Below are positions 6,802-28,362 of a DNA stretch of 30,409 bases, in pieces; positions within the stretch are counted from its first letter, which is position 1; each line of letters starts with the position of its first letter. The DNA comes from an uncultured Planctomycetales bacterium (GTDB lineage: Bacteria; Planctomycetota; PLA2; JAEUHO01), in contig CAZJJQ010000001.1 of assembly GCA_964546345.1 (NCBI GenBank), forward strand, positions 1 to 30,409, written 5' to 3'. The position numbers were made by a program, and so were the translations under genes. A model generated the notes under the pieces. The model searched no databases and was not told the DNA's origin. It saw only the letters and a list, made by a program, of their open reading frames with translations.

Positions 6802-7260
6802 ATGGCACGCACTGCGAGCGCACGTACTCCCAAGAAGTCCCCGCCCCCGCCCCCCGCTCCGGCCCGGGTGGCCAGGTACACGGTCAACAAGGCCGTGCTG
6901 GCGCGCAAGGTCTGGATCCTCGGGTGCGAGGAACCGCGGATCGTGTCGGCCGTCGCCTACCTCCGCAAGGCCGGGCACGACGCCCGAGGGGGTGAGCCCG
7001 GTGGTGACATCGGCACGGCGCTGCGTACGGAGCGCCCCGACCTCGTCGTCATCGACATGGCGGACCAGGCCGACCGCGGCAAGCACGTCGCGGTGCAGCT
7101 CCGCGCCGATCGTGGGACGCGTCAGCTCCCCATCGTCCTCGTCGGCGTTGCCTCCGCGGACGGGCCCAAGCTCGACCGGGCCGTCCCCGGTCCGACCCGT
7201 CGCTACGCCGGGGCGCTCGACTCAGCCTCGGTCCTCGAGGCGATCGTCAAGGACCTCTAG
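6802..7260 (+). CDS. Stand-alone atypical receiver (CheY-like) domain protein
   Basis: RPDLVVIDM (phospho-acceptor Asp position) and TRQLPIVLV fit the receiver fold. The conserved Thr/Ser and the Lys-Pro are not evident. Confidence 0.7.
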   Translation: MARTASARTPKKSPPPPPAPARVARYTVNKAVLARKVWILGCEEPRIVSAVAYLRKAGHDARGGEPGGDIGTALRTERPDLVVIDMADQADRGKHVAVQLRADRGTRQLPIVLVGVASADGPKLDRAVPGPTRRYAGALDSASVLEAIVKDL

Positions 7261-8823: not shown

Positions 8824-9614
8824 AGTCGTGCTCTGCGTCCGCGCGCCTCGCGCGCCGTGTCGTCGTCGCGTTCTGCCTGGGTCTGGCCGTCGGCTGCGGC
8901 GGCGGGGGCTCGGGGACCCGCGTGACCACGCCCCCCGGCGGCGGGGGGAGCGGGGGAGGCGGAGGCGGCGGCGGGGGTGGTGGGGGCGGCGGGGGCACGC
9001 CCGCCATCCCCACCCCGAACAGCGTGGACTTCACGGTGGACGCGGCAGCCCTGGCGTCCTCGGTCATGTTCACGGACGACACGTTCACCGCCGACGGCTG
9101 CGCGTACGTCGAGGGCGTCATCACCGCCACCGGCCTGCGCCGCCTCCTCAGGTTCAGCACGGTGATCGTGAACTACGGCGACACGGACGCGCACATCGGC
9201 AACCCGCACGCGCCCGTCCCCCCCCTGACGGCCGCGGACTTCGTCTACAGCCCCTGCCACGGGCACTTCCACTTCGAGGGGTGGTCCAACTACGAGCTGC
9301 GCAACGCGCAGAACCAGATCGTCGCCATCGGCCACAAGCAGGCCTTCTGCCTCCTCGACTCCATCGACTACACCCACACGAAGCCGAGCGGCGGCTACGA
9401 CTGCGAGAACCAGGGGCTCACCGCGGGTCACGGCGACCTCTACGACCGGGCCCTCGACGGCCAGTGGGTCGACGTCACGGGCCTGGCCGAGGGCGACTAC
9501 ACCCTCTACGTCAGCGTCAACGCCAGCAACAAGGTGATCGAGACCACGAACGCGCACCCGAACCAGGTCAGCGTCCCGGTGCACGTCCCGAATCCGAGCC
9601 TGCCGATCCGGTAG
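8820..9614 (+). CDS. Lysyl oxidase (LOX)-family lipoprotein
   Basis: CHGHFH (Cu-binding His triad), GHKQAFCL (LTQ Lys), GDLY (LTQ Tyr), QWVDVTG...GDYTL. Lipobox-like LAVGC followed by a Gly linker. ATGA overlap with the upstream gene. Confidence 0.85.
   Translation: MKSCSASARLARRVVVAFCLGLAVGCGGGGSGTRVTTPPGGGGSGGGGGGGGGGGGGGGTPAIPTPNSVDFTVDAAALASSVMFTDDTFTADGCAYVEGVITATGLRRLLRFSTVIVNYGDTDAHIGNPHAPVPPLTAADFVYSPCHGHFHFEGWSNYELRNAQNQIVAIGHKQAFCLLDSIDYTHTKPSGGYDCENQGLTAGHGDLYDRALDGQWVDVTGLAEGDYTLYVSVNASNKVIETTNAHPNQVSVPVHVPNPSLPIR
8937..8996 (+). repeat. Low-complexity GGN run encoding a Gly4-Ser-Gly15 linker
   Basis: Codons read directly; mixed GGC/GGG/GGA/GGT. Confidence 0.9.
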
Positions 9615-9684
9615 CCGGGGGGGATTGGTAGCGGAGCCGCATCCCCCGCGATCCTCAAGTCCGTGTGCCAAACTGATTTCTCGC

Positions 9685-9712
9685 TTGCCGTCCCCACAGC
9701 CCGAGGTAGGCT
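9685..9712 (+). promoter_or_regulatory. Putative sigma70-type promoter of efflux module 1
   Basis: TTGCCG-16 nt-TAGGCT, ending 9 nt before ATG 9722, in a locally AT-richer patch. Confidence 0.45.
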
Positions 9713-9721
9713 TCCGAACCG

Positions 9722-10231
9722 ATGACCCCGCGGCTACCCACGTTGCTTCTGCTGGCGGTGGCCCTTTTCACAGGCTTCGTGCCGCTCCGTCGCTGCCACG
9801 CCTCCGAAGGCGGCAGCGGCGTCGTCGCGCTCGGCCAGCACGGGCACGCGCACGGCGACTCGGGGGAGTCGCACGCCCCGGCGGACCCTGCGTGCGGCGC
9901 AGCGCACGCGCGGCTCCACGCCCAGGGCATCCCGCACACGCACGCCGAGGGGCACGTCCACGGCGAGGAGGGCTGCCTCCACGACGTGTGCGGCTGCGAG
10001 CACGACGACTCCACGCCGGCGACCCACGAGCGGTGCTGCGTGGACACGCCGTTCGACGCGGGGCTCGCCTCCGTGTCGGTCGTCTTCGCCCCGGCCGCGC
10101 TCGCGCCCGACAGCCTCGTCTCGAGCGCCCTCGCGGGCGCCACGGCGGCCGCCCCCTCCCTCCTCGCCCCCCGCGCGGACGCGCCCCCCGACGCGCTCCG
10201 CAGCGTACGGACCACCGTCCTCCTCCGGTGA
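9722..10231 (+). CDS. His/Cys-rich exported leader protein of efflux module 1
   Basis: Signal peptide; 14 His and 7 Cys in 169 aa; C-terminus RADAPP...TTVLLR. Confidence 0.75.
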   Translation: MTPRLPTLLLLAVALFTGFVPLRRCHASEGGSGVVALGQHGHAHGDSGESHAPADPACGAAHARLHAQGIPHTHAEGHVHGEEGCLHDVCGCEHDDSTPATHERCCVDTPFDAGLASVSVVFAPAALAPDSLVSSALAGATAAAPSLLAPRADAPPDALRSVRTTVLLR

Positions 10232-10280
10232 CCCCGGCGGCTTCGTGCCGTCGTCGTGTCGTCCCGTGATCTGGAGGAGG
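10219..10280 (+). promoter_or_regulatory. Putative anti-SD/SD helix over the MFP ribosome-binding site
   Basis: CCTCCTCCGG (10219-10228) is complementary to CTGGAGGAGG (10271-10280): 10 bp with one G-U. Internal 7-bp hairpin 10235-10253. Confidence 0.5.
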
Positions 10281-10288
10281 GTCTTGTC

Positions 10289-12034
10289 GTGGCCATCGAG
10301 AGCAGCAGCGCGGAGGGTGCGGTCGTGGTCCGAGGCGGTCGGGGCCGGGTAGCGGGAAGGTTCCTGACGGGGCTCGTCACCGCGCTCCTGGTCCTCGGCG
10401 TCGGGTTGATCGGCGGCTACGTCGCCGGGAAGCAGTCCTCCTCGGCGGGCGCGGGTGGTCACGGGGAAGGCGAGCACGCGGGCGAGGCGCCCGGGGAGCA
10501 CGCCGCCCACGAGGGCGCGCCGAGCCTCACTCCGCAGACGCTGGCGAACCTCGGCATCGAGACGGGCGAGCTCAAGGCCACGGAGTTCGTGCGCTCGCGC
10601 GAGGTGGCGGCCGTCGTCGTGGAGCCCCGGGGCGCCCGTCGGCGCGCCTACGCGCCCGTGGCGGGGCTGCTCCGCCGGGTCTTCGTGCGCCCCGGTTCCG
10701 TCGTCAAGGCGGGAGATCCGGTCGCGGAGATCCTCCGCGATCCCTTCCCGCGCCCGACCCTGACGCTCACCGACTCGCTGCTCCGGAGCCTCGACGAGGA
10801 GTTCCACCGCGCGGTCGCCGAGCTGCGCACGTCGTCGCTCGCCCTCGAGCTCGCCCACGCCGAGCTCGAGCGCGTGCGCAAGATCCTCGGCGCCAGCGCG
10901 TCGCCCACCTCCCTCCCCAGCAAGACGGAGATCGACCTCCAGCGCGAGGCTCAGCGCGCGCAGCGCAGCCTCGAGATCGCACGGGAAGAAGCGCGCCGAC
11001 ACGGCCTGACGGCCGACGAGGTGGCGGGCATCGAGGCGGGCACCCAGCCCGCGCCGAAGGCGCCCGACGTCCACCGGGTCCTCGACGCGCGCCTGTTATG
11101 GGGCCCCCCCGCGGATCGCGTCGTCGCGCTGCTCCCCGAATCCATCCGGTCAGCGCCCTTCATCGTAGCCCTGGTCGGCGAGTTGTTCGCCGCAGGACTC
11201 CTGTCCCCCGAGCTCGAGGACGCCCTGCGAACGCGGCCCGGCATCCGGGATGCGTTCTTCGACGTCGCAGGGTTGCTCCAATCGGGTGAGACGGTCGAAG
11301 GGGTGCTCTCCCTCGCGTCGTTGGGCGCCTTGCGCCCGGCAGTCCTCGTCCTGGCACCCGCCGATGCTCCGGACTGGGATGTGGTCGTGCTCGGCGTCGT
11401 GGCTGGCGCCCACATCGACCGAGGCGGGGAGGTCGCCACGCTGCTCGCTCCGCATCGGATGGCGCTGCGTCTGGCCCCGACGGGGGACGATGTGGTTGCG
11501 ATCGAAGCGTCCCTGGCCGGGGGGGAAGCGCTCGTCGCCGAGCCGCAGCAACTGGGCGTCGGCCCCACGCTGTCCGGGCTTCGCGTCACGCGATTCGAGC
11601 CGCCTGCGGAGGCCGGAGGGCTCGCAGCGCCGCTGGTCGAGTTCGACAACATCCCGCTCGCGGTGGCGCCCGCGGCCGGGGACTCCTCCGCGGCACCGGC
11701 CCCACAACCCCGGTCCTGGCGGTTTCGCGAGGGTGCGCGATACCGCGTCCAGGTGCCGCTCAAGCACATGCCCGACAGGTTCGTGCTGCCCGCGGGCGCG
11801 CTCATCACGAGGGGCGCCGACCAGGTGGTGGTGGTGAAGGAGGGACGGACCTGGCGCCAGGTCCCCGTACACGTCGAGTACCTCGACGCGCGCGTGGCCG
11901 TGGTCCCTGCCGCGAACGGCGGCCTGTTCGCCGGGGACACCGTCGTGATGCGCGGCGCGTACGCGCTGGCGCTGGCCCTCCAGGCGGCGGCGGGCGGTGG
12001 GGGCGCCGATCCCCACGCCGGCCACAACCACTAG
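10289..12034 (+). CDS. RND membrane fusion protein (MFP), unusually long, with His-rich termini
   Basis: GTG 10289 is 8 nt after GGAGGAGG. Single TM; RAYAPVAG...VRPGSVVKAGDPVAEI lipoyl-like half; C-terminal FVLPAGAL...VPVHVEY...GLFAGDTVV; tail DPHAGHNH. Confidence 0.85.
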   Translation: MAIESSSAEGAVVVRGGRGRVAGRFLTGLVTALLVLGVGLIGGYVAGKQSSSAGAGGHGEGEHAGEAPGEHAAHEGAPSLTPQTLANLGIETGELKATEFVRSREVAAVVVEPRGARRRAYAPVAGLLRRVFVRPGSVVKAGDPVAEILRDPFPRPTLTLTDSLLRSLDEEFHRAVAELRTSSLALELAHAELERVRKILGASASPTSLPSKTEIDLQREAQRAQRSLEIAREEARRHGLTADEVAGIEAGTQPAPKAPDVHRVLDARLLWGPPADRVVALLPESIRSAPFIVALVGELFAAGLLSPELEDALRTRPGIRDAFFDVAGLLQSGETVEGVLSLASLGALRPAVLVLAPADAPDWDVVVLGVVAGAHIDRGGEVATLLAPHRMALRLAPTGDDVVAIEASLAGGEALVAEPQQLGVGPTLSGLRVTRFEPPAEAGGLAAPLVEFDNIPLAVAPAAGDSSAAPAPQPRSWRFREGARYRVQVPLKHMPDRFVLPAGALITRGADQVVVVKEGRTWRQVPVHVEYLDARVAVVPAANGGLFAGDTVVMRGAYALALALQAAAGGGGADPHAGHNH

Positions 12035-12047
12035 CCCGGGCCCGATC

Positions 12048-15000
12048 ATGATCAACCTCAATCGGATCATCGCCGGCAGCCTGCGCGGACGCCGGACCGT
12101 GGCCGCCCTCGCCCTGGCCGTCTCGATCTACGGGATCTGGACGGCGCTCTCGCTGCCGGTGGACGTGCTGCCCGACCTGAACCGCCCCACCGTCACCGTC
12201 ATGACGGAGGCCCACGGCCTCGTCCCGGAGGACGTCGAGCGCCTCGTGACGCGCCTCGTCGAGCAGTCGGTCAGCGGCGCGACCGGCGTCACGCGGGTGC
12301 GCTCGAGCAGCGGCCTCGGGCTCTCCGTCGTCTTCGTCGAGTTCGGGTGGGACACCGAGATCTTCCGCAACCGGCAGATCGTCCAGGAGAAGCTCGCGTC
12401 CCTGAGCGGGCAGCTCCCGCCCGGGGTCGAGCCCACCATGGCGCCCATCTCGAGCATCATGGGCCAGGTGCTCCAGGTGGGCATCCGAAGCGAGTCGGGA
12501 GACACGGATCCCGCCGCGCTTCGCGTGATCGCGGACACGATCGTGCGCCCCCGCCTCGTCTCGGTCGCGGGCGTCGCCCAGGTGGTGCCCATCGGCGGCA
12601 GCCCCCGCCAGCTCCAGGTGGTCGCCGACGCGCGCGCGCTCCGCGCGTTCGACGTCGGGCTCCACGACGTGGAGCAGGCGATCCGCCACGCCAACGTGGC
12701 GGGATCCGGCGGGGTGCTGCCCCTCGGCACCGAGGGCCCGCTCGTGACGGTCCCCGGCCTCGTCCGGGGCGCGCACGACCTCGAGACCGCGGTCGTGCGG
12801 AGCGACCCGATCCGGCCCGTCCTCGTCTCGGACGTCGCGCGGGTCGAGTTCGGGCCCTCGCCGATCAAGGCGGGCGAGGCCGGCATCATGGGCAAGCCGG
12901 GCGTCATCCTCACGGTCTTCAAGCAGCCGTCGGTCGACACCGTCGCGCTGGTGGACCGCGTCCGCGAGGAGCTCGCCGCCCTGCAGGCCTCCCTGCCGAA
13001 GGACGTCCTGGTGGTGCCGGGCATCTACGACCAGGCCGGCTTCATCCACCGCGCCATCGACAACGTGTCGGACGCGGTGCGCGACGGGGCGATCCTCGTC
13101 GTCCTCATCCTGTTCCTGTTCCTCCTGAGCCTCCGCACCACGGTCATCACCCTGACCGCGATCCCGCTCTCGATCGCCGTCACCGCGCTGGTGTTCAAGG
13201 CCTTCGGCGTGTCCATCAACACCATGACGCTCGGCGGGCTCGCCGCGGCGATCGGGGCCCTGGTGGACGACGCGATCGTGGACGTGGAGAACGTCTACCG
13301 CCGGCTGCGCGAGAACCGCGCCGCCGGATCGCTCCTGCACCCGATCCTCGTCATCTACCGGGCGTCGAGCGAGGTCCGCAAGCCGATCCTCGTCGGCACG
13401 CTGCTCGTCGTCGTCGTGTACGCGCCGCTCTTCGGCCTCGCCGGGATGGAGGGGCGCCTGTTCGCGCCCATCGGCGTCGCCTACATCACGAGCATCCTCG
13501 CGTCGCTGGTCGTCTCGCTGACGGTCACGCCCATCCTGTGCCTCTGGCTACTGCCGAACGCGAAGGGGACCGCCCGCACGAAGGACGGCTTCCTGGTCCG
13601 GGGCGTCAAGGCCGCGGGGGGGAGCCTGATGTCCTTCTCCTGCCGGCATCCGTGGTCGGTCGCGCTGGTCATCCTGGCCGCCGGGATCTCCTCCGTGGCG
13701 GTGTTGGCCACCCGCGGCACCGAATTCCTACCCCCGTTCAACGAGGGGACGGCGCAGGTGAACCTGATCCTGCCGCCAGGCGCGAGCCTCGAGACATCCG
13801 ACGCGTTCGCGCGGCGACTGGAGAAGGTCCTTCTCGAGGTCAAGGGTGTCGCCGGTTTCGGTCGAAAGACGGGCCGTGGCGAGGGGGACGAGCACGCCGA
13901 GGGCGTGAACATGAGCGAGGCGATCGTCTCGTTCGACCCTGCCTCCGGACGCTCTCGCGAGGACACCATCGCGGACATCCGGGAGCGGCTCGCCCACGAG
14001 TTCCCCGGCGTGGCGACCGAGGTGGAGCAGCCGCTTGCGCACCTGCTCACCCACATGCTCTCGGGCGTCAACGCCCAGGTCGCCATCAAGGTGTTCGGTC
14101 CGGATCTGACGGCGCTGCGCGATCTTGCCAAGGACATCGAGCTGGCCGTGAGGCCGGTCCCCGGCGTGCGCGATCTCATCCTCGAGCCCCAGGTCCTGAT
14201 GCACCAGGTGAACGTCACGCCCCGCCGCGATGCGATGGCCGCGCGAGGCCTGAAGATGGAAAGCGTGGCCGAGGCCGTAGAGCTGGGCCTCGAGGGCGGC
14301 GAGATCGACCGGATGACCGTCGGGCAGATCTCCTACCCGATCATCCTGCGGCTGCGGCCGGAGGACCGCTCCGATCTGCAGGCGGTCGGCAACCTCGTCC
14401 TCGAGACCGAGCACGGAGAACGGCTGCGGCTCTCCGAGGTCGCCGACGTCCGCGTCGGCTGGACGCCGAACAACATCAACCGGGAGAACGTGAGCAGACG
14501 CATCGTCGTGCAGCTCAACGTCGAGGGCCGCGCGCTCGGGGATGTGGTGAAGGACCTCGAGAAGGCCCTCGAGCCCGTCCGCACGCGGCTGCGCGGCATG
14601 CCGGGCTACACGGTCCGCCTCTCCGGCCAGTTCGAGGCGCAGCAGGAGGCGTCGCGTCGTCTGGTGCTGCTGACGCTGCTGTCCTTCGCGGCCATGTTCT
14701 TCATCCTCTACGGCCACTACCGCTCGTTCAACCTCGCGTGGCAGGTCATGGGCAGTATCCCCATGGCCCTCATCGGCGCCGTGGTGCTCGTGGTCTACAC
14801 GAAGCAGACCGTCTCCATCGCGGTGCTCGTGGGCCTCATCTCGCTCGCGGGCATCGCCGCCCGCAACAGCATCCTGCTGATCGACCACTACCTCCATCTC
14901 ATGCGCGAGGAGGGCATGCCCTTCGGCGTGCCCATGATCTTGAAGGCCGGCAAGGAGCGCCTGATCCCGGTCCTGATGACGGCGCTCTGCGCCGGCATCG

Positions 15001-15308
15001 CGCTGGTGCCGATCGTGATGACCCCCGACCGGCCCGGCCGCGAGCTCCTCTATCCCGTCGCCACCGTGATCCTCGGCGGGCTCGTGTCCAGCACGCTCCT
15101 CGACCTGCTCGTGACGCCGGGGCTGTTCCTCGTCCTCGGACGGCGCGCGGCGGAGGCCCACACGAAGCACCGCGAGCGCCGCGACCGCGTCGCCGAGGAG
15201 CTGATCGAGGAGCTCCACCCCGACGCCCCGCCGACGGGCCCGGCCCCCGGCGCCCCCCCCTTCCCGTCCCTTCCCCTCTCTCCAGGAGCCGTGCATGCGC
15301 ATCCGTGA
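12048..15308 (+). CDS. Heavy-metal efflux RND permease (CusA/CzcA family, non-CzcA TM4 type)
   Basis: LPVDVLPDLNRPTVTVMTEAHG, TM4 GGLAAAIGALVDDAIVDVEN, EFLPPFNEG, GIAARNSILL, RLIPVLMTAL; 1086 aa from ATG 12048. Confidence 0.95.
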   Translation: MINLNRIIAGSLRGRRTVAALALAVSIYGIWTALSLPVDVLPDLNRPTVTVMTEAHGLVPEDVERLVTRLVEQSVSGATGVTRVRSSSGLGLSVVFVEFGWDTEIFRNRQIVQEKLASLSGQLPPGVEPTMAPISSIMGQVLQVGIRSESGDTDPAALRVIADTIVRPRLVSVAGVAQVVPIGGSPRQLQVVADARALRAFDVGLHDVEQAIRHANVAGSGGVLPLGTEGPLVTVPGLVRGAHDLETAVVRSDPIRPVLVSDVARVEFGPSPIKAGEAGIMGKPGVILTVFKQPSVDTVALVDRVREELAALQASLPKDVLVVPGIYDQAGFIHRAIDNVSDAVRDGAILVVLILFLFLLSLRTTVITLTAIPLSIAVTALVFKAFGVSINTMTLGGLAAAIGALVDDAIVDVENVYRRLRENRAAGSLLHPILVIYRASSEVRKPILVGTLLVVVVYAPLFGLAGMEGRLFAPIGVAYITSILASLVVSLTVTPILCLWLLPNAKGTARTKDGFLVRGVKAAGGSLMSFSCRHPWSVALVILAAGISSVAVLATRGTEFLPPFNEGTAQVNLILPPGASLETSDAFARRLEKVLLEVKGVAGFGRKTGRGEGDEHAEGVNMSEAIVSFDPASGRSREDTIADIRERLAHEFPGVATEVEQPLAHLLTHMLSGVNAQVAIKVFGPDLTALRDLAKDIELAVRPVPGVRDLILEPQVLMHQVNVTPRRDAMAARGLKMESVAEAVELGLEGGEIDRMTVGQISYPIILRLRPEDRSDLQAVGNLVLETEHGERLRLSEVADVRVGWTPNNINRENVSRRIVVQLNVEGRALGDVVKDLEKALEPVRTRLRGMPGYTVRLSGQFEAQQEASRRLVLLTLLSFAAMFFILYGHYRSFNLAWQVMGSIPMALIGAVVLVVYTKQTVSIAVLVGLISLAGIAARNSILLIDHYLHLMREEGMPFGVPMILKAGKERLIPVLMTALCAGIALVPIVMTPDRPGRELLYPVATVILGGLVSSTLLDLLVTPGLFLVLGRRAAEAHTKHRERRDRVAEELIEELHPDAPPTGPAPGAPPFPSLPLSPGAVHAHP

Positions 15309-15765
15309 TCTGGCCCTCGGGGCCCTCCCCCTCCTCCTGCTCTCCCTCGGCGGCTGCGGCGACAAGGCCGCCCCCGAGAAGGGCGCCGCGAAGCCTCCCG
15401 CCGACGCCGACGCCCACGCTCACGCGAAGGCGCCGCACGGCGGCGAGCTCCTCGAGCTCGGCGAAGAGGAGGCCCACCTCGAGATCGTCCACGACGCCAA
15501 GGCCGGAGCCGTGACGGTCTACGTGCTCGACAAGGATGGGAAGACGCCCGTCCCGACCGCGGCCCCGACGATCGTCCTCGCGACGAAGGACGGGCCCAAG
15601 GACCTCGTGCTGACGGCCGTGAATGCGAAGCCGGACGGCACCGCCGACACCTGGCAGGGCGCCCACGAGGGGCTCAAGGCGGAGCCGCCGGACGGTCGCA
15701 TCCGCGTGACGGTGCGCGGCAAGGCATACCAGATGCCGCTCGAGAGCGGCGGTCACGGTCACTAA
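15295..15765 (+). CDS. His-rich lipoprotein, putative periplasmic metal-binding accessory
   Basis: SD AGGAG; lipobox LGGC; HAHAKAPHGGELLELG...HLEIVHD; C-terminal GHGH; 14-nt overlap with the RND stop. Confidence 0.8.
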   Translation: MRIRDLALGALPLLLLSLGGCGDKAAPEKGAAKPPADADAHAHAKAPHGGELLELGEEEAHLEIVHDAKAGAVTVYVLDKDGKTPVPTAAPTIVLATKDGPKDLVLTAVNAKPDGTADTWQGAHEGLKAEPPDGRIRVTVRGKAYQMPLESGGHGH

Positions 15766-15828
15766 GGCGCCTTACGGAACGCCGCCCCGGGGACGCTCCC
15801 CGGGGCGGTCGAGGCGCTCGGAGTCGTC

Positions 15829-17049
15829 ATGAACGCACGTACCGGAGTCCGCGTCGGCGTCGCCCTCGCGGCGACCCTTGCCTCCCTCGGCTGCGCGCGA
15901 TATCGAGCCGCACCGCTCGACGTCGGCCGCCCGCTCCGCGCGGATGCCGCTTCCGTCCCCTCCGTGGGGACGTACGAAGCCGCCGTGGCCTTCGCGATCG
16001 AGCACAACCCCGACCTCGCGGCGCTGCGCGCGCACGCGATGGCTGTGAACGTCGACCCGCCCCGCGAGCCCGTGGAGGGCTCGGGGGGCGTCGACTCCGA
16101 CCACCGGGGCGAGATCGGCATCTCGGTCGACGCGCTCTCGCTCCTCGGGCTCGGCACACGCCCCTACGAGGTGGCGCTCGCCTGCGCGCGCCGCAACGAG
16201 GCCTACATGGCGCATCACGAGCGGGCGCGTGCCATCGCCGGCGAGATCGCCGAGGTCCTCTCCGTCGAGCGGGCCCTCGGCGCGCTGGCCGAGCCGGAGT
16301 ACCGGGTGGACGTCAGCGCCTTCGTGCGCGCCGGCCTCGAGGCAGGCTCGGCCGAGACGGCGGCCGCGGCGACGGGAGCGGCCTGGAAGGCGGAGCAGGC
16401 CGAGCGCGTCGCCGAGCGGACGAGCACTCGGCTCGCGTGGATCCGCGCGCTCGGGTTGCCGTCCGGGTCCCAGGTGCGGGTCGTGCCCGTGCCTGCCGCG
16501 TGGCCCGAGGTGCCGGAACCGTCGCCCGCGGCGCTCGTCGCGTCGCGCGCCGACATCCAGCGACGGATCGCCGCGTTCGAGGCTGCGGACCGCGAGCTCC
16601 GGCTCGCCGTGCGCGGCCAGTACCCGTCCCTGATCCTCGAGCCGGGGCTCGCCTTCGACCCGGCCACGCTCTTCGGGGCCGTGAAGCTGCGGCTGCCGAC
16701 CGGCATGTCCGGCGCAGTCCGGGCCGCGGAGTCGGCGCGGGAGGCCGCGAGAGCCGAGGTGGAGTCGGCCGTCCTGGACGCCCTGCGCGAGGCCGGCGAG
16801 GCGCGGGCGCGCTGGACGGCGGCGGGCGCGGCGCTCTCGGCGGCCCGGAAGCGCGTGGATGCGTCGTCGGCGCTGCTTGCGAGCTCGCGTCTACGTCTCG
16901 AGGTGGCCTCGGGATCTCCCGTCGAGACCGTGCTCGCCGCGGACGCGGTGGTGGACGCGGCCGCGGGCCTGCGCGCCGCCACCGTCGAAGAAGCGCGCGC
17001 GCGGACGCGCGCGGCCCGCGCCGCCGGCTGGCCCGGACTTCCCCGGTAG
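15829..17049 (+). CDS. Divergent TolC/OMF-family outer membrane lipoprotein
   Basis: Lipobox SLGC; AVAFAIEHNPDLAALR; SRADIQRRIAAFEAADRELRLAVRGQYP; Ala/Arg/Glu helical repeats; operon context. Confidence 0.8.
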   Translation: MNARTGVRVGVALAATLASLGCARYRAAPLDVGRPLRADAASVPSVGTYEAAVAFAIEHNPDLAALRAHAMAVNVDPPREPVEGSGGVDSDHRGEIGISVDALSLLGLGTRPYEVALACARRNEAYMAHHERARAIAGEIAEVLSVERALGALAEPEYRVDVSAFVRAGLEAGSAETAAAATGAAWKAEQAERVAERTSTRLAWIRALGLPSGSQVRVVPVPAAWPEVPEPSPAALVASRADIQRRIAAFEAADRELRLAVRGQYPSLILEPGLAFDPATLFGAVKLRLPTGMSGAVRAAESAREAARAEVESAVLDALREAGEARARWTAAGAALSAARKRVDASSALLASSRLRLEVASGSPVETVLAADAVVDAAAGLRAATVEEARARTRAARAAGWPGLPR

Positions 17050-17097
17050 TCCCTGGCCCCGATCTCGGTCCCATGTCGTCGCGCTCCCACTTCCTGG

Positions 17098-19314
17098 ATG
17101 CCGCAGGTCCGCGTGGCGCGTGACGACCTCGTGATTCGCGTCCACGGCATGGACTGTGCCGAGGAGGTCGCCCCGCTCCGGCGGGTGCTGGGGCAGCTCC
17201 TGGGCGGGGAGGAGCGCCTTCGGTTCGATCTGTTGACCGGCACGCTGTCCGTCGTGGACGGCGAGCCTCGGATCGCGATGGACGCGTTGCTCGCCGCGAT
17301 CGCGAGCATCGGCATGCGCGGGGAGGCCTGGAGTCCGCGGATGCCCGCGAGCGAAGCCGGGCTCACCTCGGGCCGCCGGGGTCGGGCGATCCTCACGATC
17401 GCGAGCGGCCTCTCGGCCGCGGCCGGCTTCGCCGCGCACGCCGTCGTGGGAGGTGGGATCTCGGCCGCCCTCGGAGCGGAGGGGGTCGCAAACGCTGCCA
17501 CGGTACCCGTCGTGGCGCGCTTCTGCTATTCCCTCGCGATCGTCGCGGGGCTCGGCGCCGTGCTGCCCAAGGCGTGGGCGGCGCTGCGCCGGGTGCGGCC
17601 GGACATCCACCTGCTGATGGTGATCGCGGTGGTCGGGGCGGTCTGGATCGGCGAGTGGTTCGAAGGCGCGACGGTGGCGTTCCTGTTCTCCCTCTCCCTC
17701 GCCATCGAGGCCTGGAGCCTCGGTCGTGCCCGCCGGGCGGTCGGGTCGCTGCTCGACTTGACGCCGGAGACGGCACACCTCCTCGGCGACGACGGCGCCT
17801 CCGAGGAGGTCCCGTGCGACGCGGTCCCGGTGGGAGCACGGATTCGGGTCAAGCCCGGCGAGCGACACCCGCTCGACGGGGTGGTCGTCACGGGGGCGGG
17901 CGTCGTGAACCAAGCCCCCATCACCGGAGAGAGCATCGCCGTCGAGAAGGGGCCGGGTGATCCCGTCTTCGCGGGCACGCTCAACGGCGACTCCGCGTTC
18001 GAGATCCGTACGACGAAGCTCGCGGGCGACACGACGCTCGCGCGCATTGCCCTGCTGGTGGGGGAGGCCCGTTCGCAGCGGTCCGCCTCGGAGCGCTGGG
18101 TGGATCGGTTCGCGCGGATCTACACGCCGGTCGTCCTCGGCCTGGCCCTCCTGGCCCTCGTCCTCCCCCCGACGCTTCTAGGCCGGGGATGGGACACGTC
18201 CCTGTACGAGGCCCTGGTGCTGCTGGTGATCGCGTGCCCCTGCGCGTTGGTGATCTCGACCCCCGTGAGCATCGTCGCAGGCCTGACCGCGGCGGCTCGC
18301 CACGGGATCCTGGTCAAGGGGGGAGAGCATCTCGAGCGGGCGGCCCGCCTCGACGCGATCGCCTTCGACAAGACGGGAACGCTCACCGAGGGGAGGCCGA
18401 CCGTCGTCGAGGTGGTGCCCCTCGACGGGCACACCGATGGGGAGCTCCTGGCCCGCGCCGCCAGCCTGGAGCTCTCGAGCGAGCACCCCCTCGCCAAGGC
18501 CATCCTCGCGAGCGCGGCGGAGCGGGGTCTCAAGACGAGGCCCGCCGTCGGGCTCCGCATCCTCCAAGGCAAGGGCGCCACGGCGCGAGTCGAAGGCGTC
18601 GAGCTCTGGCTAGGCTCGCACCGCTACCTCGAGGAGCGAGGCGAGGAGACCCCCGACGTGCACCGCCGCCTGGAGGCCCTTGCCGTCGGGGGACGCAGCG
18701 TCGTCGTGGTGGGGGACGCGACTCACGTCTGCGGGCTCATCGCGATCGCGGACCGTGTGCGCCCGAACGCCGCGGGGGCGGTGCGGGCCCTCCGGGCCTC
18801 GGGCATCCGTCATCTGGTCATGCTGTCGGGCGACAACGCCGCCACTGCCCGAGCGATCGGCGATCTCGCCGAGATCGACGAGGTGCGGGCCGATCTGCTG
18901 CCCGCCGAGAAGGTCGCCGCCGTCGAGGCGCTGATCCTGCGCTATGGCACCGTGGCAATGGTCGGCGACGGCGTCAACGACGCGCCCGCCCTCGCCCGGT
19001 CCAGCCTGGGAATCGCCATGGGGCGGGGGGGCAGCGACGTGGCGATCGAGTCCGCCGACATCGTCCTCGTGTCGGACGATCTCGCCAAGCTTCCGTGGCT
19101 CGTCGCCCACTCGCGCAGGACCCTCCGCGTCGTGCGCCAGAACATCGTCTTCTCCATCCTGGTCAAGCTCATCTTCGCGGTGCTCACCGTCATCGGCGCC
19201 GCCCGCATGTGGGCCGCGATCGCGGCCGACATGGGCGCCTCGCTCGCCGTCATCGCCAACGGGCTCCGGCTCCTTCGCGCCGGAGCCGACCGACCTGTGG
19301 GCCGCGACTCCTGA
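17098..19314 (+). CDS. cadA: P1B-2 heavy-metal (Zn/Cd/Pb)-exporting P-type ATPase
   Basis: N-terminal HMA with GMDCAEE, TGES, ACPCALVIS, DKTGT, SEHP, GDGVNDAP, TM7 Lys (VKLIF) and TM8 Asp (ADMG). The exact start is uncertain (no clear SD). Confidence 0.92.
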   Translation: MPQVRVARDDLVIRVHGMDCAEEVAPLRRVLGQLLGGEERLRFDLLTGTLSVVDGEPRIAMDALLAAIASIGMRGEAWSPRMPASEAGLTSGRRGRAILTIASGLSAAAGFAAHAVVGGGISAALGAEGVANAATVPVVARFCYSLAIVAGLGAVLPKAWAALRRVRPDIHLLMVIAVVGAVWIGEWFEGATVAFLFSLSLAIEAWSLGRARRAVGSLLDLTPETAHLLGDDGASEEVPCDAVPVGARIRVKPGERHPLDGVVVTGAGVVNQAPITGESIAVEKGPGDPVFAGTLNGDSAFEIRTTKLAGDTTLARIALLVGEARSQRSASERWVDRFARIYTPVVLGLALLALVLPPTLLGRGWDTSLYEALVLLVIACPCALVISTPVSIVAGLTAAARHGILVKGGEHLERAARLDAIAFDKTGTLTEGRPTVVEVVPLDGHTDGELLARAASLELSSEHPLAKAILASAAERGLKTRPAVGLRILQGKGATARVEGVELWLGSHRYLEERGEETPDVHRRLEALAVGGRSVVVVGDATHVCGLIAIADRVRPNAAGAVRALRASGIRHLVMLSGDNAATARAIGDLAEIDEVRADLLPAEKVAAVEALILRYGTVAMVGDGVNDAPALARSSLGIAMGRGGSDVAIESADIVLVSDDLAKLPWLVAHSRRTLRVVRQNIVFSILVKLIFAVLTVIGAARMWAAIAADMGASLAVIANGLRLLRAGADRPVGRDS

Positions 19315-19405
19315 CCGTGGACCACGAGAGTCCGTCCCGATGCCGCCAGTCTGTGCCTGCACCTCCCCTTTCCCCTCTCCCTGCCCCCCCGGAGGTTCCC
19401 TTCCC

Positions 19406-19945
19406 ATGCGCGTCAAGATGCTGATCTTCGTGACCCTGCTCGCCATGACCCCTCACATCGCCCAGGCCGAAGACAAGCCGCCGACCGCCGCACCGACGCC
19501 CGCCCCCAAGCAGGAGTTCGTCTACCTCGAGTTCACCGGAGTCGAGGAGTCGGAGCTGCCGGCGGTGATGGACGCCCTCGTCCGGCTCGACGGCGTGAGA
19601 TCCGTCGCATGGACCGCTCCTGGCAGAGAAGCGAAGGTCGTGCGGGAGCCCGGCAAGGCCGCCCACTCGCTGCTCGTGAAGGCGGCCCTCGACTCGGGCG
19701 CCGCGACCGCCGGCGTCGTCCCGATCACGGTCGCTGCGTTCAGATTCGACAAGATCCTGCATTGCCCGAGCTGCGTGAAGAAGGTCAACCGTGCGGTGCT
19801 CGCGGTTCCTGGAACCAAGGAGTCCGCGGTCGCCGGGGCCTTGGACCGCGTCACGGTGGCTTACGACTCTCGGGTCGCCAAGCCGCAGGCAGTGCTGGAC
19901 GCACTGGCCAGGGCCGAGTTCCCCGCGACGGCGTCGACTCCGTAG
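19406..19945 (+). CDS. Exported tandem HMA-fold protein (second domain with CxxC)
   Basis: GGAGG SD; signal peptide; ferredoxin-like pattern twice; LHCPSCVKKVNRAVLAVPG...VTVAYD in domain 2; no Cys in domain 1. Confidence 0.8.
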   Translation: MRVKMLIFVTLLAMTPHIAQAEDKPPTAAPTPAPKQEFVYLEFTGVEESELPAVMDALVRLDGVRSVAWTAPGREAKVVREPGKAAHSLLVKAALDSGAATAGVVPITVAAFRFDKILHCPSCVKKVNRAVLAVPGTKESAVAGALDRVTVAYDSRVAKPQAVLDALARAEFPATASTP

Positions 19946-19967
19946 GCCCGCGTCCCGAGTCGTAGGC

Positions 19968-20000
19968 CCGCCGCGACGCGCACCGGTCGCGTCGCGGTGG
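19968..20000 (+). terminator. GC-rich hairpin after module 1, possible terminator
   Basis: Perfect 10-bp stem CCGCGACGCG (19971-19980) / CGCGTCGCGG (19988-19997), extendable to 13 bp with one G-U; no U-tract. Preceded by an 11-bp direct repeat CGTAGGCCCGC (19941, 19961). Confidence 0.45.
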
Positions 20001-20339
20001 CGCAACTGGACCGGGCGGCGGACGCCTCGGCTGCCCGGTCGGTAGCCTCGCGTGCCTGTCGCTGCGCCTCCGCGTCGTGCTGTTTCGCGCAGGAGTAGGA
20101 CCGCCCGGAGTCCGACCGGGCGCACTGCGCCGTGGCGGGGCGCCCCGTCACAAGTCATGTCGTCTCCCAGACCCGCACGTGGTGCCGATTCCCCTCCCCA
20201 TCCGCGGGAAGGCCCTGGTGGCCGTTGTTCCAGAGACGGTGACGTTCGGGGCAGCGTCGGGGCGTCGTGGCGGCGGACCCCAAGACGTATGGGGCGCTCC
20301 GGGTCGTGCGCATCCTCGAGCCACCCACGTTCCAGAGTG

Positions 20340-20660
20340 TCACGAAGCGGTTCGGCCCATGCCCAGCAGCCGGGCCATGTCGCCCGTAGTTCGTTGAAGT
20401 CGGTGTAGTCGTACGAGCTCTTGGATTCGGTGCATGTCGGTCCTGTGCGCGTCCATGGGGCCCTCCCGGACGGAGTGTGTCCGGGGGAGGGTGCGGCGCG
20501 CGGCGTGGCCACGGGCACGAATGCGGGCCCGAGCGCGCGAGTGGATCCGCTTGGCCGAGCTGGGTGGTCCTGCTTGGCCGACCTGGACCTACGTCACCGC
20601 GCGCCCGGGGTGGACCTGCTTGCCCGAGCTACGGTGGTCCTGATAGCCCGGCCTGCGACA
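20340..20660 (-). mobile_element. Decayed IS21-family left end with istA 5' fragment
   Basis: The minus strand begins TGT at 20660, followed by four ~18-bp repeats. Then GGGAGGG and a 38-codon ORF (20456-20340) MDAHRTDMHRIQELVRLHRLQRTTGDMARLLGMGRTAS, which resembles the HTH N-terminus of IS21 IstA proteins as I recall them. No catalytic domain or istB. Confidence 0.65.
20541..20651. repeat. Four imperfect 18-bp direct repeats (consensus GTGGWCCTGCTTGSCCGA)
   Basis: Copies at 20541, 20564, 20610 and 20634; spacings 23, 46 and 24 nt. Confidence 0.85.
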
Positions 20661-20830
20661 CACCGCACGCTGGCGCCCTGCCTCGGCCCACGGGACAGTC
20701 CGCGCGCGTCGGGATCGTACGGCGTCGGTCGGTCCTCGCCCCCCGGCGCCCGAATGCCGAGGACGCTCGCGCCCGGGGGGGGCGCAGCCCCTGTATTCGC
20801 ATGACGGGGGAGTCGAAGAGGATCGGCCCG

Positions 20831-20839
20831 TGGTAGGAT
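20831..20839 (+). promoter_or_regulatory. Putative extended -10 (TGgTAGGAT) of module 2
   Basis: Overlaps ATG 20838 and lies 7 nt before in-frame GTG 20847, which may be the real leaderless start. Confidence 0.45.
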
Positions 20840-21230
20840 GGGACTCGTGACCCTCGGCGCCCGCCTCCTCGTGCTCCTGCTCGCGATCGTCCCTGCGATC
20901 TGGGGCATGTGCCCTTGCAGCATCGCAGAGTGCTGCGCCGATGAGGAGGGGTGCTGCTCGGACGAGGATCCGTGCGGGAACGAGTCCGCGCCAGGTCGCG
21001 AGCCGTCGCCGCAGGGCCCGTGTAAGGGGTGTGCCCTGATGGATGCTGGGCATGGCCTTCTGCCTCCGATGCCCTGCCCCTCGATCCTCGCGCACGTCGT
21101 CTTCGCCTGTCCCACGCCCGCACCGGAATTGGACGCCTCGGCTGCGTGTGTGTCCATTGCGCTGGCTGCCGACGTGCGTGCCCCCGGGCCACCCCGCGGG
21201 CATGCCGCATCCATGGTGCTGCTGATCTAA
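20838..21230 (+). CDS. Cys-rich leader protein of efflux module 2 (alternative start GTG 20847)
   Basis: Hydrophobic N-terminus; 12 Cys including CPC, CC, CC and CKGC; C-terminus RAPGPP...SMVLLI. Confidence 0.75.
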   Translation: MGLVTLGARLLVLLLAIVPAIWGMCPCSIAECCADEEGCCSDEDPCGNESAPGREPSPQGPCKGCALMDAGHGLLPPMPCPSILAHVVFACPTPAPELDASAACVSIALAADVRAPGPPRGHAASMVLLI

Positions 21231-21288
21231 GCGACGCGAGCCAGCCGCCGTCCCCGGACGGATTCCATCTCATGGAGGCACTCGCATG
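21201..21288 (+). promoter_or_regulatory. Putative anti-SD/anti-start pairing over the OMF translation start
   Basis: GCATCCATG (21207-21215) pairs with CATGGAGGC (21271-21279) at 8 of 9 positions. CATGC (21201-21205) pairs with GCATG (21284-21288, includes the ATG). Internal 5-bp hairpin 21248-21261. Confidence 0.4.
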
Positions 21289-22737
21289 TTTCGCTCTTGT
21301 TCTGCGTCAGCGTTCGTCGGCAGTGACCTCGCTTCGCACTCGATCCGCTGCTCGCGGAACGAGATTGCAGGAGAGGAGTCGTCGATCCGAGCGGGTCGAG
21401 GCACCGCAGCGATCCGTCGATCCCTGCTGCTCCCCGTCCTGTTCGTGCTGTCCGCGTGCGCCCAGGCGCGCCCCATTCCGCTCGACCTCAGGTCGTTCGA
21501 GGCGGGACTCCCCCGTGCGCGCCGTGAGGCCGTCCCAGCGCCCGCCTTGGCTTGGCGGGGGGCGACGAGCCTCACCCTCGCCGAGCTGCGCGCGGCGGCC
21601 GACGAGACGAATCCGGAGATCGCAGCCGAGCGCAAGGAGATCGACGTCTCGACCGCAGCCATCTGGGAGGCACGACTCTACCCCAACCCCACGCTCCTGC
21701 TCGAGTATGAGGACTTCCCCGTCGGGAGCCGCTCGAACGGGACAGCTCGCGTTGGGGTCCGGGTCCCGCTCGTCATCGGCGACCGCCTCAAGGCCGGCTC
21801 CCGTGCGGCGGAGAAGGAACGGGAGGTCGTCGCGCTTCGCTTCCTATGGCGCCGACGCGAGATCCTCCTGGGGGTGCGCAAGGCGTACATCGACCTGCTC
21901 GCGGCGAGGCGAGCACGCGACGCGGCGCACGAGTCGCGTGACGTTGCCCGGAGTCTGCTCGACGCTGCGGAGGCGCGGCTTGCCGCTCAGGCAGCGCCGG
22001 AGGTCGAGGTGCTCAAGTCGCGCATCGAGCTGTCCACAGCCGAGGCCGAGCTTGAGGCGGCCGAGGCTTCGGTCTCGGCGGCAGGTCGCACGCTCGAGGC
22101 CTCCATCGGCCCCGCGAGCTTGGCAGCGGATCGTGTCGTGGGAGATCTCGCGCCCGGATACGCCGTTCCGACGTTTCAGGACCTCCGCGCTCAGATCGAA
22201 GGACGTAGCGCGCTGGAGGAGATCGCCCGCGCGGAACTGGCCGCCGCGGAGGCGCAGATCTCCGCCGCGCGGGCCGAGAAGACGCCCGACATCGAGCTGG
22301 AGGCGAAGGCCGGACGGAACGGCGACGGAGAGGGCGTAGGAAGCCTCGGCATCGGGATCCCCCTGCCCTTCAACAATCGCAACCAGGCGAAGGTCGCTTC
22401 ATCGGAAGCGAGATCGCTCCAAGCCGTCGCACGCGTCCAGGCTGCGCGCCAGGAGCTGCTGCGGCGCCTCATCGCGGTGCACCGCGATCTCTCCACGGCG
22501 CAGGCGCGGGTGACGCGCCTATCCACCATGTCCGTCCCGACGGCAGAGACGAGCCTCTCCCAAGTGCGCCTCGGCTTCGAGAAGGGCAAGCTCGCCTACC
22601 TCGACGTGATCGACGCGCGCAGAAGCCTGAGCGAGACCAAGTCGGCGCTTGCGGCAGCGCTGGCCCAGCTGAACACGGCCGCCGCGGAGCTCGAGGCCCT
22701 GACGGGGCTCGAGCTTCCCCCCATCCCACCCAAGTAG
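21286..22737 (+). CDS. czcC: CzcC-like TolC-family outer membrane protein
   Basis: GGAGG SD; lipobox VLSAC; ADETNPEIAA, ARLYPNPTL, GIGIPLPFNNRNQ, GFEKGKLAYLDVIDARRSL; upstream of czcB/czcA-like genes. Confidence 0.85.
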   Translation: MFRSCSASAFVGSDLASHSIRCSRNEIAGEESSIRAGRGTAAIRRSLLLPVLFVLSACAQARPIPLDLRSFEAGLPRARREAVPAPALAWRGATSLTLAELRAAADETNPEIAAERKEIDVSTAAIWEARLYPNPTLLLEYEDFPVGSRSNGTARVGVRVPLVIGDRLKAGSRAAEKEREVVALRFLWRRREILLGVRKAYIDLLAARRARDAAHESRDVARSLLDAAEARLAAQAAPEVEVLKSRIELSTAEAELEAAEASVSAAGRTLEASIGPASLAADRVVGDLAPGYAVPTFQDLRAQIEGRSALEEIARAELAAAEAQISAARAEKTPDIELEAKAGRNGDGEGVGSLGIGIPLPFNNRNQAKVASSEARSLQAVARVQAARQELLRRLIAVHRDLSTAQARVTRLSTMSVPTAETSLSQVRLGFEKGKLAYLDVIDARRSLSETKSALAAALAQLNTAAAELEALTGLELPPIPPK

Positions 22738-22748
22738 GAGGAGTCCTT

Positions 22749-23219
22749 GTGAAGACGAAGCTGTTTCCCCTCATGACCCTCGCCGCCCTGCTCGTCGCGG
22801 GCGTCGCCCTCGCCGGAGAGCCCTCGGCGAAGCGTCGCGAGGACAAGGATCGCATCGAGATCCCCGGCACGATCGTCAGCATCGGTGCGACGCTCGAAGG
22901 CTTCGGCGCCAACGCCGAAGACACCCTGTACACGAAGGGCGCACAGGGACTGCTTGCTCCCGACGGCACGCTCTGGACCTTCGTGAAGAACGCCAAGGGC
23001 TTCGGCGTCGTCACCAACGAGAAGCTGCGCGGCAAGGAGATCAAGGTGCTCGGCTGGAAGTACCCCAAGGCCCAGTACGTGGAGATCGCGCGGTACGCCG
23101 TCAAGGAGGGCGAGAAGTGGGTGCCGTACGACTTCTGCAAGAACTGCGGCTGGGAGGCCAACCACGACAACAAGGACACCGACCTCTGCGAAGACTGCCG
23201 CGCGGACGCGGGGAAGTAG
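22749..23219 (+). CDS. Exported hypothetical protein with a C-terminal Cys4 (CKNC...CEDC) motif
   Basis: AGGAGGAG SD, GTG start, signal peptide, strongly G/C-ending codons. Confidence 0.85.
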   Translation: MKTKLFPLMTLAALLVAGVALAGEPSAKRREDKDRIEIPGTIVSIGATLEGFGANAEDTLYTKGAQGLLAPDGTLWTFVKNAKGFGVVTNEKLRGKEIKVLGWKYPKAQYVEIARYAVKEGEKWVPYDFCKNCGWEANHDNKDTDLCEDCRADAGK

Positions 23220-23222
23220 AAC

Positions 23223-24533: not shown

Positions 24534-24574
24534 TGCGTGGAGAAGTAACGCCGCGGTCGCGGCGATAGGACGCA

Positions 24575-27813: not shown

Positions 27814-28362
27814 ATGCGTATCGCCATCCTGGTCTTCTCGCTTGCCCTTCTCTCCGCTGCCGTTCCCGTGGGCGCAGTCCTCGCTCAGGACGCACCGGCA
27901 CCCGCCCCTGCGCCCAAGCTCGAGTGCCTCTACCTGGAGTTCGCGCCACTCTCGACCCTGGACGTGGTCACGGTCGGCAAAGCACTCACAGCCGTCGTAG
28001 GCGTCAAGTCCGCCGAGTGGACCGTCAGTGGATCCGAGGTGAAGGTGGTGCGTGAGGTCGGTGCTGCGGCGAGCGACGCGCTCATCGCCGCGGCGAAATA
28101 GGCCGGCGCGAAGTCTGCGGTCGTCGTGCCGATCAGGTCGACCGTGTTCGTGTTCGCAAAGCCGTTGCACTGCGCGGGGTGCATCGGAGCGGTCAACAAG
28201 GCGCTCCGAGACCTGAAGGGCGTCAAGGAGGTCGCGGTGACTGAGGCGCTCTCTACCGTGATCGTTGCGTACGACACTCGCACAGTGTCCCCGAGTGACG
28301 TCGAGTCCGCGCTCGTGGCCATCGGGAAGCCCGCCACCGCGGAGACCCCCAGCACCAGGTAG
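27814..28362 (+). pseudogene. Exported tandem HMA-fold protein interrupted by an in-frame TAG at codon 96 (28099-28101)
   Basis: Track ORFs ending 28101 and starting 28126 are in the same frame. Read through, they align end-to-end with 19406..19945 (YLEF, VVRE, GA..A.VVPI, LHCxxC, VAYD). Confidence 0.8.

Follow-up and report, generated by a model that had tools for sequence, protein, structure and literature searches.

How is a heavy-metal efflux operon switched on when no metal-sensing regulator lies beside it? The question is raised by a 30,409-nucleotide stretch of DNA (the whole stretch analysed, hereafter the window; G+C about 73%) from an uncultured Planctomycetales bacterium, contig CAZJJQ010000001.1, in which two modules for efflux pumps of the resistance-nodulation-division (RND) type each start with a small open reading frame (ORF) predicted to encode an exported protein rich in Cys and His, here called leader 1 and leader 2. 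An earlier reading made from the letters alone (the sequence-only reading) had remarked that neither module has a visible regulator, and our Pfam and NCBIfam search of the whole window agreed with it: no DNA-binding regulator was found anywhere in the 30 kb, the sole hint being a sub-threshold CheY-like receiver at 6802-7260 (E 0.05). In two longer syntenic loci of relatives, too, no usual metal-sensing regulator is adjacent, and a sigma-70-family gene stands about 3 kb downstream in one of the two. The answer to which we give an even chance is that the two leaders, both unannotated, are divergent relatives of the metal-sensing leaders of the CutF/CruR (DUF2946) type and act by the mechanism set out below. 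The host assembly is a metagenome-assembled genome (MAG) in 910 contigs, 82% complete, and real genes were told from the many open frames by their third-position G+C (GC3).

In module 1, leader 1 precedes the gene of a membrane fusion protein (MFP, the adaptor), and the following features, which include that gene's Shine-Dalgarno (SD) sequence, its anti-SD strand, an AlphaFold2 (AF2) prediction and the minimum-free-energy (MFE) fold, carry the argument:

9722-10231, plus strand: leader 1 ORF, first gene of module 1; 169 amino acids, with close homologs and profile-search clusters
9722-9802, plus strand: predicted signal peptide or anchor (residues 1-27), with the family-conserved VPLRxC.A and its invariant C25 at the end; AF2 helix at 5-19
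9836-9847, plus strand: Q-H-G-H codons, putative ligand motif; His40 invariant, His42 conserved in at least 90%
10034-10039, plus strand: CC motif (C105, C106); C106 invariant; AF2 strand 106-110 beside 22-27 and 32-36
10172-10189, plus strand: RADAPP codons; PP 48 residues after C106, with 13 residues left to the C-terminus
10217-10231, plus strand: V-L-L-R codons and TGA, 10217-10228 being the anti-SD strand
10199-10294, plus strand: conserved RNA element made of the last 10 codons, the spacer and the MFP gene start, marked by synonymous-site fixation and a near-invariant spacer
10235-10253, plus strand: hairpin of 7 bp with the loop UUCGU, enclosed by the long-range helix, from folding; the sole change among close homologs lies in the loop
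10271-10282, plus strand: SD strand CUGGAGGAGGGU of the MFP gene
10287-10293, plus strand: start-codon strand UCGUGGC (GTG 10289), whose partner in the MFE fold is 10203-10210, a segment with the rare GTA codon

The translation confirmed what had been said of leader 1, namely 14 His and 7 Cys in 169 amino acids, RADAPP followed by 13 residues, and a VLLR tail, and the spacer to the MFP gene is indeed 57 nt long (TGA 10229-10231 to GTG 10289). The GC3 of leader 1 (0.93) is similar to that of real genes, and folding bore out a small hairpin in the spacer of each module. The last four codons, GUCCUCCUCCGG (10217-10228), pair with CUGGAGGAGGGU (10271-10282) over 12 contiguous bp, a helix that is equalled or beaten by 0.36% of the 27-nt windows of the same 30 kb set against that SD region. 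The proposal that the last codons of each leader can pair with the SD of the next gene thus stood for module 1 and fell for module 2, where the pairing reaches 7 bp at best and 26% of background windows match it. In the MFE fold of module 1 the VLLR codons pair with the SD and 10203-10210 with the start-codon region, enclosing the hairpin 10235-10253; the same topology of anti-SD, hairpin and SD is the MFE in all 18 loci of the leader 1 family that were folded, with differences between subfamilies in the inner hairpins and in the bases near the stop codon.

Constraint on the RNA itself was read from seven non-redundant close homologs of leader 1. Within residues 160-169, a single codon is used at 8 of the 9 positions with an invariant amino acid, against 15 of 48 elsewhere (Fisher p 0.002); the rare GTA (1.6% of Val codons) is retained in 6 of the 7 homologs; and the spacer is near-invariant among close homologs whose proteins are 53-76% identical. 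The last codons and the spacer of module 1 are a conserved RNA covering the SD and the start codon of the MFP gene, so that translation of leader 1 very likely gates initiation on that gene.

How far does this arrangement extend? A word-based search gave the seven close homologs, genome searches added more distant relatives in the same order, protein-based scans of public collections contributed a single new locus, and a profile search of 1.8 billion representatives brought the family to 40 clusters, at 50% identity or less, whose members are mostly from Planctomycetota and range from 117 to 182 amino acids. All of these clusters are without a name, including in the protein atlas. In every context read (about 20 loci, a subset of the 40 clusters) the leader stands directly upstream of an MFP gene of about 570-600 codons; an RND pump gene follows in all contigs that reach that far, and a small lipoprotein gene was seen in one relative. 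The columns P21, C25, H40, C106 and L167 are invariant in an alignment of 44 sequences, at least 90% of which also keep G38, H42, V166, L168 and R169. The exact C-terminal V-L-L-R is present in 39 of the 44 proteins. Its Leu and Arg codons vary across subfamilies (CTC, CTG, CTT; CGG, CGC), and since the tail is kept although these codons vary, it must be constrained as a peptide as well as an RNA, the latter in the subfamily of the window.

The proline motif behaves otherwise. The sequence-only reading had proposed RxxPP as an arrest motif, and in the family this motif is not conserved: PP occurs within the last 20 residues in 25 of 44 members, the remainder having single prolines such as VPxG or PVPRxP, and the Arg is replaced in distant members (GDGPP, GHGPP, AANPP), RPDAPP also being found among relatives. 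The last Pro lies 5-16 residues from the C-terminus, most often 10. The conserved element is the V-L-L-R/I tail, not the Pro motif. The anatomy of these leaders, its conservation and the constraint on the RNA are what the analysis shows.

We also observed a regularity that is unexplained: leader and MFP ORFs of the leader 1 family share one reading frame in 18 of 18 loci (window 10229-10291 and our loci L014, L015, L017, L019, L025, L027-L029, L051-L053, L055, L057-L060 and L062), with spacers of 45, 48, 54, 57 or 72 nt, and every leader of these loci stops at TGA.

Both leaders have a predicted export signal, with a positively charged n-region, a hydrophobic core of 15-16 residues and small residues at -3/-1. 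For leader 1, AF2 given 10 sequences reached a predicted local distance difference test (pLDDT) score of 46; with the 44 sequences the mean was 63, the N-terminal part alone being confident. This part consists of the signal helix and a three-stranded sheet (22-27, 32-36, 106-110) at pLDDT about 80, which brings the invariant ligands C25, H40, H42 and C106 close together. The C-terminal 60 residues score low, with no fold predicted, and the ESM Atlas model of the whole protein has a pLDDT of 0.42. These models fit a predicted metal-binding mini-domain followed by an unstructured tail.

Are these leaders members of DUF2946 (PF11162), the family of CruR? Pfam and NCBIfam gave no match to either leader, with none to DUF2946 at E up to 0.01, and a six-frame DUF2946 search of the genome at E up to 10 matched neither of them. 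Among the leader 1 relatives, weak sub-threshold DUF2946 matches were found in 8 of 44 (best E 0.011), this being the sole recurring Pfam family, and hhalign of the two leader families against 13 DUF2946 proteins of the phylum aligned motif regions only, with probabilities of 14% and 0.2%. Those 13 proteins have CXXC, 43-47 residues, R[AG]PP and then 2-7 residues, with 45-49 from Cys to the first Pro. From Cys to PP, leader 1 has 48 residues and leader 2 has 52, the family ranging over 45-55, to be compared with that 45-49, and leader 2 has the CXXC in the form CKGC. The tails after PP, by contrast, run to 10-17 residues in the family against 2-7 in DUF2946, and leader 1 and its family have CC or C.C (CCVD) in place of CXXC. 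A RAPP motif 2-7 residues from the C-terminus is seen in neither leader (13 and 11 residues follow), and RAPP/RAPG of the ApdA/ApdP/ApcA type is not conserved among their relatives. Under the published rules for CutF-like proteins (fewer than 150 amino acids, PP within the last 15 residues, a signal peptide, and a short spacer to a metal-homeostasis gene; PMC9973294), leader 2 agrees in sequence and position, and leader 1 is borderline with PP at -15/-14; at 169 amino acids it is too long for the 150-residue filter. The claim that the ORFs are built like CruR and CutF therefore holds for the architecture, that is, for signal, ligand motif and Cys-to-PP spacing, and the leaders probably work like DUF2946 proteins and are probably distant relatives of them, although we do not count them as members of the family.

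The host genome also has a bona fide DUF2946 gene, on contig C264 at 2995-3351 (L030:1483-1929, minus strand), with CALC, 44 residues and RGPPPPTRR. It lies directly upstream of the gene for a 451-residue exported protein and is a third, canonical leader-type gene in this genome.

For leader 2, of which two independent sequences were available, the relevant features are these:

20838-21230, plus strand: leader 2 ORF, first gene of module 2; alternative start GTG 20847 possible
21021-21032, plus strand: CKGC (CXXC) motif, kept in the homolog
21177-21194, plus strand: RAPGPP codons; PP conserved, RAPG not
21216-21230, plus strand: V-L-L-I codons (GTG CTG CTG ATC) and TAA
21231-21285, plus strand: spacer 2, with outer stem, hairpin 1 and SD hairpin
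21236-21240 with 21281-21285, plus strand: outer stem of spacer 2, GCGAG with CUCGC
21248-21261, plus strand: hairpin 1 of spacer 2
21264-21276, plus strand: SD hairpin of spacer 2, UCCAU-CUC-AUGGA

Here too the translation agreed with the earlier description (130 amino acids with 12 Cys; RAPGPP, 11 residues, tail VLLI), and so did the spacer of 55 nt (TAA 21228-21230 to ATG 21286). RAPG, on the other hand, is not conserved, homologs reading RGPG or GGPP. Spacer 2 is 84% identical to that of the homolog, the proteins being 48% identical. The short pairing of tail and SD shifts its register in the one independent homolog, and the SD hairpin reads UCCAC-CCC-GUGGA there, with one compensatory change from U-A to C-G. 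A spacer-internal SD hairpin fits module 2 better than a tail/SD pairing. The outer stem extends from 6 nt past the stop to the start codon, and from the two sequences we infer that a terminating ribosome would reach it.

The two leaders had been said to share little sequence. This is true overall (hhalign probability 54%) and untrue of their tails: in a relative, a leader of the leader 2 type ends in PPPGVRTVVLLI, which is the consensus tail of the leader 1 family with Ile for Arg, so that the tails are homologous and one superfamily takes in both leaders of the window. In the relative with the leader 2 homolog there is, in addition, a further RND operon (OEP, CzcB, ACR_tran) headed by a 142-residue ORF (L061:729-1157), of the LLI-tailed type, which ends in SPPRATPPTQSTARLATSALLI and has a spacer of 119 nt.

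What, then, might metal do? In the mechanism that we propose, the nascent leader would be exported co-translationally, and its Cys/His site (C25, H40, H42 and C106 in leader 1) would leave the translocon with the last 50-60 residues still in SecY and the ribosome. Metal occupancy could then alter the dwell time of the ribosome on a C-terminal module consisting of Pro or PP, 8-13 residues that end in V-L-L-R/I, and the stop codon. The computed fold of module 1 has the last four codons as the anti-SD strand of a helix in which the MFP start codon is buried too, and a ribosome placed on them, or terminating there, would free the MFP gene's ribosome-binding site; translation of the pump would thereby be coupled to that of the leader and tuned by metal. 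In module 2 the same role would probably fall to the structure within the spacer, through its outer stem just after the stop. Export, metal binding, pausing and the on/off direction are inferred in this scheme from sequence. As to the direction, we prefer, tentatively and at rather less than an even chance, that the SD is freed (ON) by a ribosome that lingers on the last codons or at the stop, by analogy with CutF and SecM; the invariance of VLLR, the position of the stop inside the helix and the distance from Cys to the C-terminus (56-77 residues in the family, interquartile range 60-64.5) fit this.

A number of results weigh against the proposal. DUF2946 scores below its Pfam threshold and profile-profile alignment is limited to the motif regions; 19 of the 44 members have no PP in the tail; and no precedent for VLLR among arrest or pausing motifs is known to us. 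A stable protein could contain the N-terminal Cys2His2 mini-sheet (pLDDT about 80), and with a MAG of 82% completeness in 910 contigs there may be a distant regulator elsewhere in the genome. At the RNA level, the folding energies of both leader regions are no better than those of dinucleotide shuffles (z -1.1 to +0.4). The covariation of anti-SD and SD that the sequence-only reading had called for is not real in RNAalifold on 15 loci, which keeps 7 generic anti-SD:SD pairs only with a covariation term near 0; an RNAduplex test of self against cross pairing in 13 loci gave no separation, being too permissive, and in an ungapped-helix test the self pairing was best in 4 of 13 loci only. With the covariation term near 0, we claim no covariation for the long-range helix. 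Furthermore, CTC is the major Leu codon here (57%), so that CUCCUC could partly be codon bias, and the codon-choice test for CTC in VLL was marginal (p about 0.05).

Against this background three other explanations have to be weighed. The sequence-only reading had the ribosome arrest at RADAPP/RAPGPP and thereby keep the anti-SD/SD helix intact (OFF), metal on the exported part relieving the arrest and the advancing ribosome melting the helix (ON). Geometrically this is possible because PP lies 30 nt before the anti-SD, out of reach of a ribosome stalled there, and conservation of the RNA starts at codon 160, at about the front edge of such a ribosome; the Cys-to-PP distance (45-55) is tighter than that from Cys to the C-terminus and equals the DUF2946 spacing, and in CruR copper does relieve arrest (PMC9426467). 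It is nevertheless no better supported than the dwelling = ON of CutF, and we judge it unlikely: the Arg is not conserved, PP is missing from so many tails, RAPG is not kept in the relatives of leader 2, the invariance of VLLR is left unexplained, and in CutF of Rhodobacter capsulatus (cutFOG), the one characterised case of detoxification, metal prolongs stalling (PMC9973294; bioRxiv 10.1101/2025.02.05.636593). Somewhat less unlikely to our mind, although still improbable, is that the leaders are stable membrane-anchored or periplasmic metal-binding accessories of the pump (a CzcI-, SilD- or CusF-like sensor or chaperone), the helix being ordinary coupling and a distant transcription factor being in control. 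Such a role would suit the four ligands gathered in the confident sheet, a size of 117-182 residues that is large for a pure leader, the constant company of an unusual long MFP, a VLLR that could act as a docking peptide, and the incompleteness of the genome. It sits poorly with the predicted disorder of the C-terminal 60 residues and the low ESM Atlas score, as well as with the absence of an adjacent regulator in the window and of the usual metal-sensing types in the two longer syntenic loci; CutF and CruR, of about the same length, are short-lived, and the frozen synonymous sites and invariant spacer show a function of the RNA in cis on top of the protein.

The shared frame brings in the last of the three, that the UGA after VLLR is recoded, by selenocysteine or programmed readthrough, to make leader 1 and MFP one polypeptide. 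SelB and SelA homologs score above the NCBIfam cut-offs in the host (contigs C157:3827-5719 and C409:1735-3108), from which the organism probably makes selenoproteins, and all leaders of the leader 1 type stop at TGA before a hairpin, in frame with the MFP in 18 of 18 loci. Yet the distance from hairpin to UGA and the loop vary between subfamilies, one locus has a second in-frame TGA in its spacer, the G+C of the spacer by codon position is 0.78/0.60/0.72 against a GC3 of about 0.9 in genes, and none of the 44 relatives has a Cys codon at the position of the UGA; these four points, variable hairpin distance, second in-frame stop, low spacer GC3 and no Cys homologs, tell against a bacterial selenoprotein gene with UGA and a SECIS hairpin. 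Moreover, a strong SD and a start codon stand at normal spacing, the fusion would put the body of the MFP on the cytoplasmic side, and GTC-type triplet repeats could account for indels of 3 nt. We regard recoding as very improbable. In a composite idea, also quite improbable though less so, the invariant VLLR-UGA tail and a Pro 8-13 residues ahead of it would form a new nascent-peptide module by which termination on the anti-SD codons is slowed. A Cys2His2 mini-domain located some 62 residues upstream, at the SecY exit, would tune this module through its metal-dependent folding or disulfide status, and the strictly in-frame spacer (18 of 18 loci) would mean that a degree of UGA readthrough into the adaptor gene belongs to the switch.

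Is the element transcribed? DNA of the window region 9300-11300 is common in activated-sludge and wastewater metagenome runs, and metatranscriptome contigs identical to the window (4 runs from 4 studies) run from leader 1 across the spacer into the MFP gene (e.g., 10201-10843 and 10118-10302), with no contig of those runs on 9300-9700, in the upstream lysyl-oxidase gene. This coverage is consistent with a transcript beginning near leader 1, although such contigs cannot give transcript ends or levels and carry-over of DNA is possible. Scans for sigma-70 promoters and intrinsic terminators found nothing in either leader region, planctomycete promoters being outside the coverage of the promoter scan, and Rfam 15 gave 0 matches at the gathering score in the whole window.

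The remaining genes of the two modules, with outer-membrane factors (OMF), pumps of the heavy-metal efflux (HME) type and the motifs of their fourth transmembrane segment (TM4), are as follows:

10289-12034, plus strand, GTG start: module 1 MFP/adaptor, 582 amino acids, atypically long, His-rich C-terminus
11997-15308, plus strand: module 1 HME-type RND pump 1, TM4 motif AIGALVDDAIVDVEN, CusA-like
15295-15765, plus strand: module 1 lipoprotein, His-ended, in synteny in relatives
15829-17049, plus strand: module 1 OMF
17098-19314, plus strand: module 1 ZntA-like P1B ATPase
19406-19945, plus strand: module 1 exported HMA protein, from an HMA-domain Pfam match
21286-22737, plus strand: module 2 OMF
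22749-23219, plus strand: module 2 exported protein with four Cys (Cys4)
23223-24533, plus strand: module 2 MFP
24575-27745, plus strand: module 2 RND pump 2, TM4 motif DFGLIVDSSVIMIEN, CzcA-like
21286-27745, plus strand: module 2 as a whole, after leader 2

In the gap between the modules (19946-20837, about 0.9 kb) no ORF has a coding-like GC3, Rfam gives no match, and neither promoter-like nor terminator-like sites are present. In TM4, pump 1 (approximately 12414-12461) has the CusA-like AIG...DDAIV..EN and pump 2 (approximately 25748-25795) the CzcA-like DFG...DSSVI..EN, from which module 1 may handle monovalent and module 2 divalent metals. The MFP of module 1 gives only weak Pfam/NCBIfam adaptor matches and has a His-rich C-terminal end, GGGGADPHAGHNH; the same atypical long type follows every leader of the leader 1 family examined. 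The lipoprotein at 15295-15765, after the RND gene, has His-rich ends and is without a family match, its synteny being kept at L028:5125-5736. Exported proteins with an HMA domain close both modules, at 19406-19945 and 28102-28362 (Pfam E 1e-8 and 1e-9), and a similar one occurs in the syntenic locus of one relative (L028:3265-3993). The exported protein at 22749-23219, between the OMF and the MFP of module 2, carries CKNC-x13-CEDC and is likewise without a family match; a 161-residue ORF occupies the same slot in the locus of the leader 2 homolog (L061:10945-11430), the likeness being one of size and position only.

If the proposal is true, periplasmic metal itself would switch on heavy-metal RND pumps through translation, no transcription factor being required, in a lineage of widespread wastewater planctomycetes, and the CutF/CruR principle would extend to a phylum and a motif set that present family models and the published filters fail to catch. 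Some 40 clusters of "hypothetical proteins" would gain a testable role, and the VLLR tail would allow constraint at the peptide level to be separated from constraint at the RNA level within one element. That CutF-like proteins occur upstream of RND genes is already published, OEP, HlyD_D23 and ACR_tran genes being frequent neighbours of theirs (Öztürk et al. 2023, PMC9973294). New here are the planctomycete clade missed by the Pfam model, the VLLR tail, which is invariant and serves also as anti-SD, the long distance from Pro motif to stop, and the in-frame spacer.

Among known systems, CzcI, SilD and CusD of Cupriavidus metallidurans resemble our leaders, by their published description rather than by their sequences, as small exported Cys/His proteins that come first in an HME-RND operon; they have been grouped with CutF-like proteins, and CzcI is without a C-terminal proline motif (PMC9973294). 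With SecM, MifM and VemP the leaders would share an exported leader whose ribosome position controls a stem hiding the downstream SD (here predicted) and conserved residues spread across the last 10-15 positions; those systems, in contrast, sense secretion force and not metal, and none of their motifs (FxxxxWIxxxxGIRAGP etc.) is found in these leaders. CruR (Bp2923 of Bordetella pertussis, PF11162, PMC9426467) is alike in its export signal, CXXC (CKGC in leader 2), Cys-to-Pro spacing, place as first gene of a metal operon and the idea of metal sensing by a nascent chain, but its RAPP lies 3 residues from the end, its spacer measures 162 nt, its termination is Rho-dependent, and it represses an importer, whereas a long tail, a spacer of 55-57 nt, sequestration of the SD and an exporter operon are found here. 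The likeness to CutF lies in a small exported protein whose Cys motif precedes a C-terminal Pro motif by about 45-50 residues, in a stem-loop of the short spacer that shields the next SD, and in a metal detoxification gene downstream. Unlike CutF, which ends in PPPRL and stalls 2-3 codons from the stop, our leaders have no Pfam DUF2946 match and place PP 11-13 codons before the stop (10-17 in the family); many relatives do without PP, the invariant element of the leader 1 family is V-L-L-R before the stop, and in leader 1 the anti-SD strand lies inside the coding tail itself.

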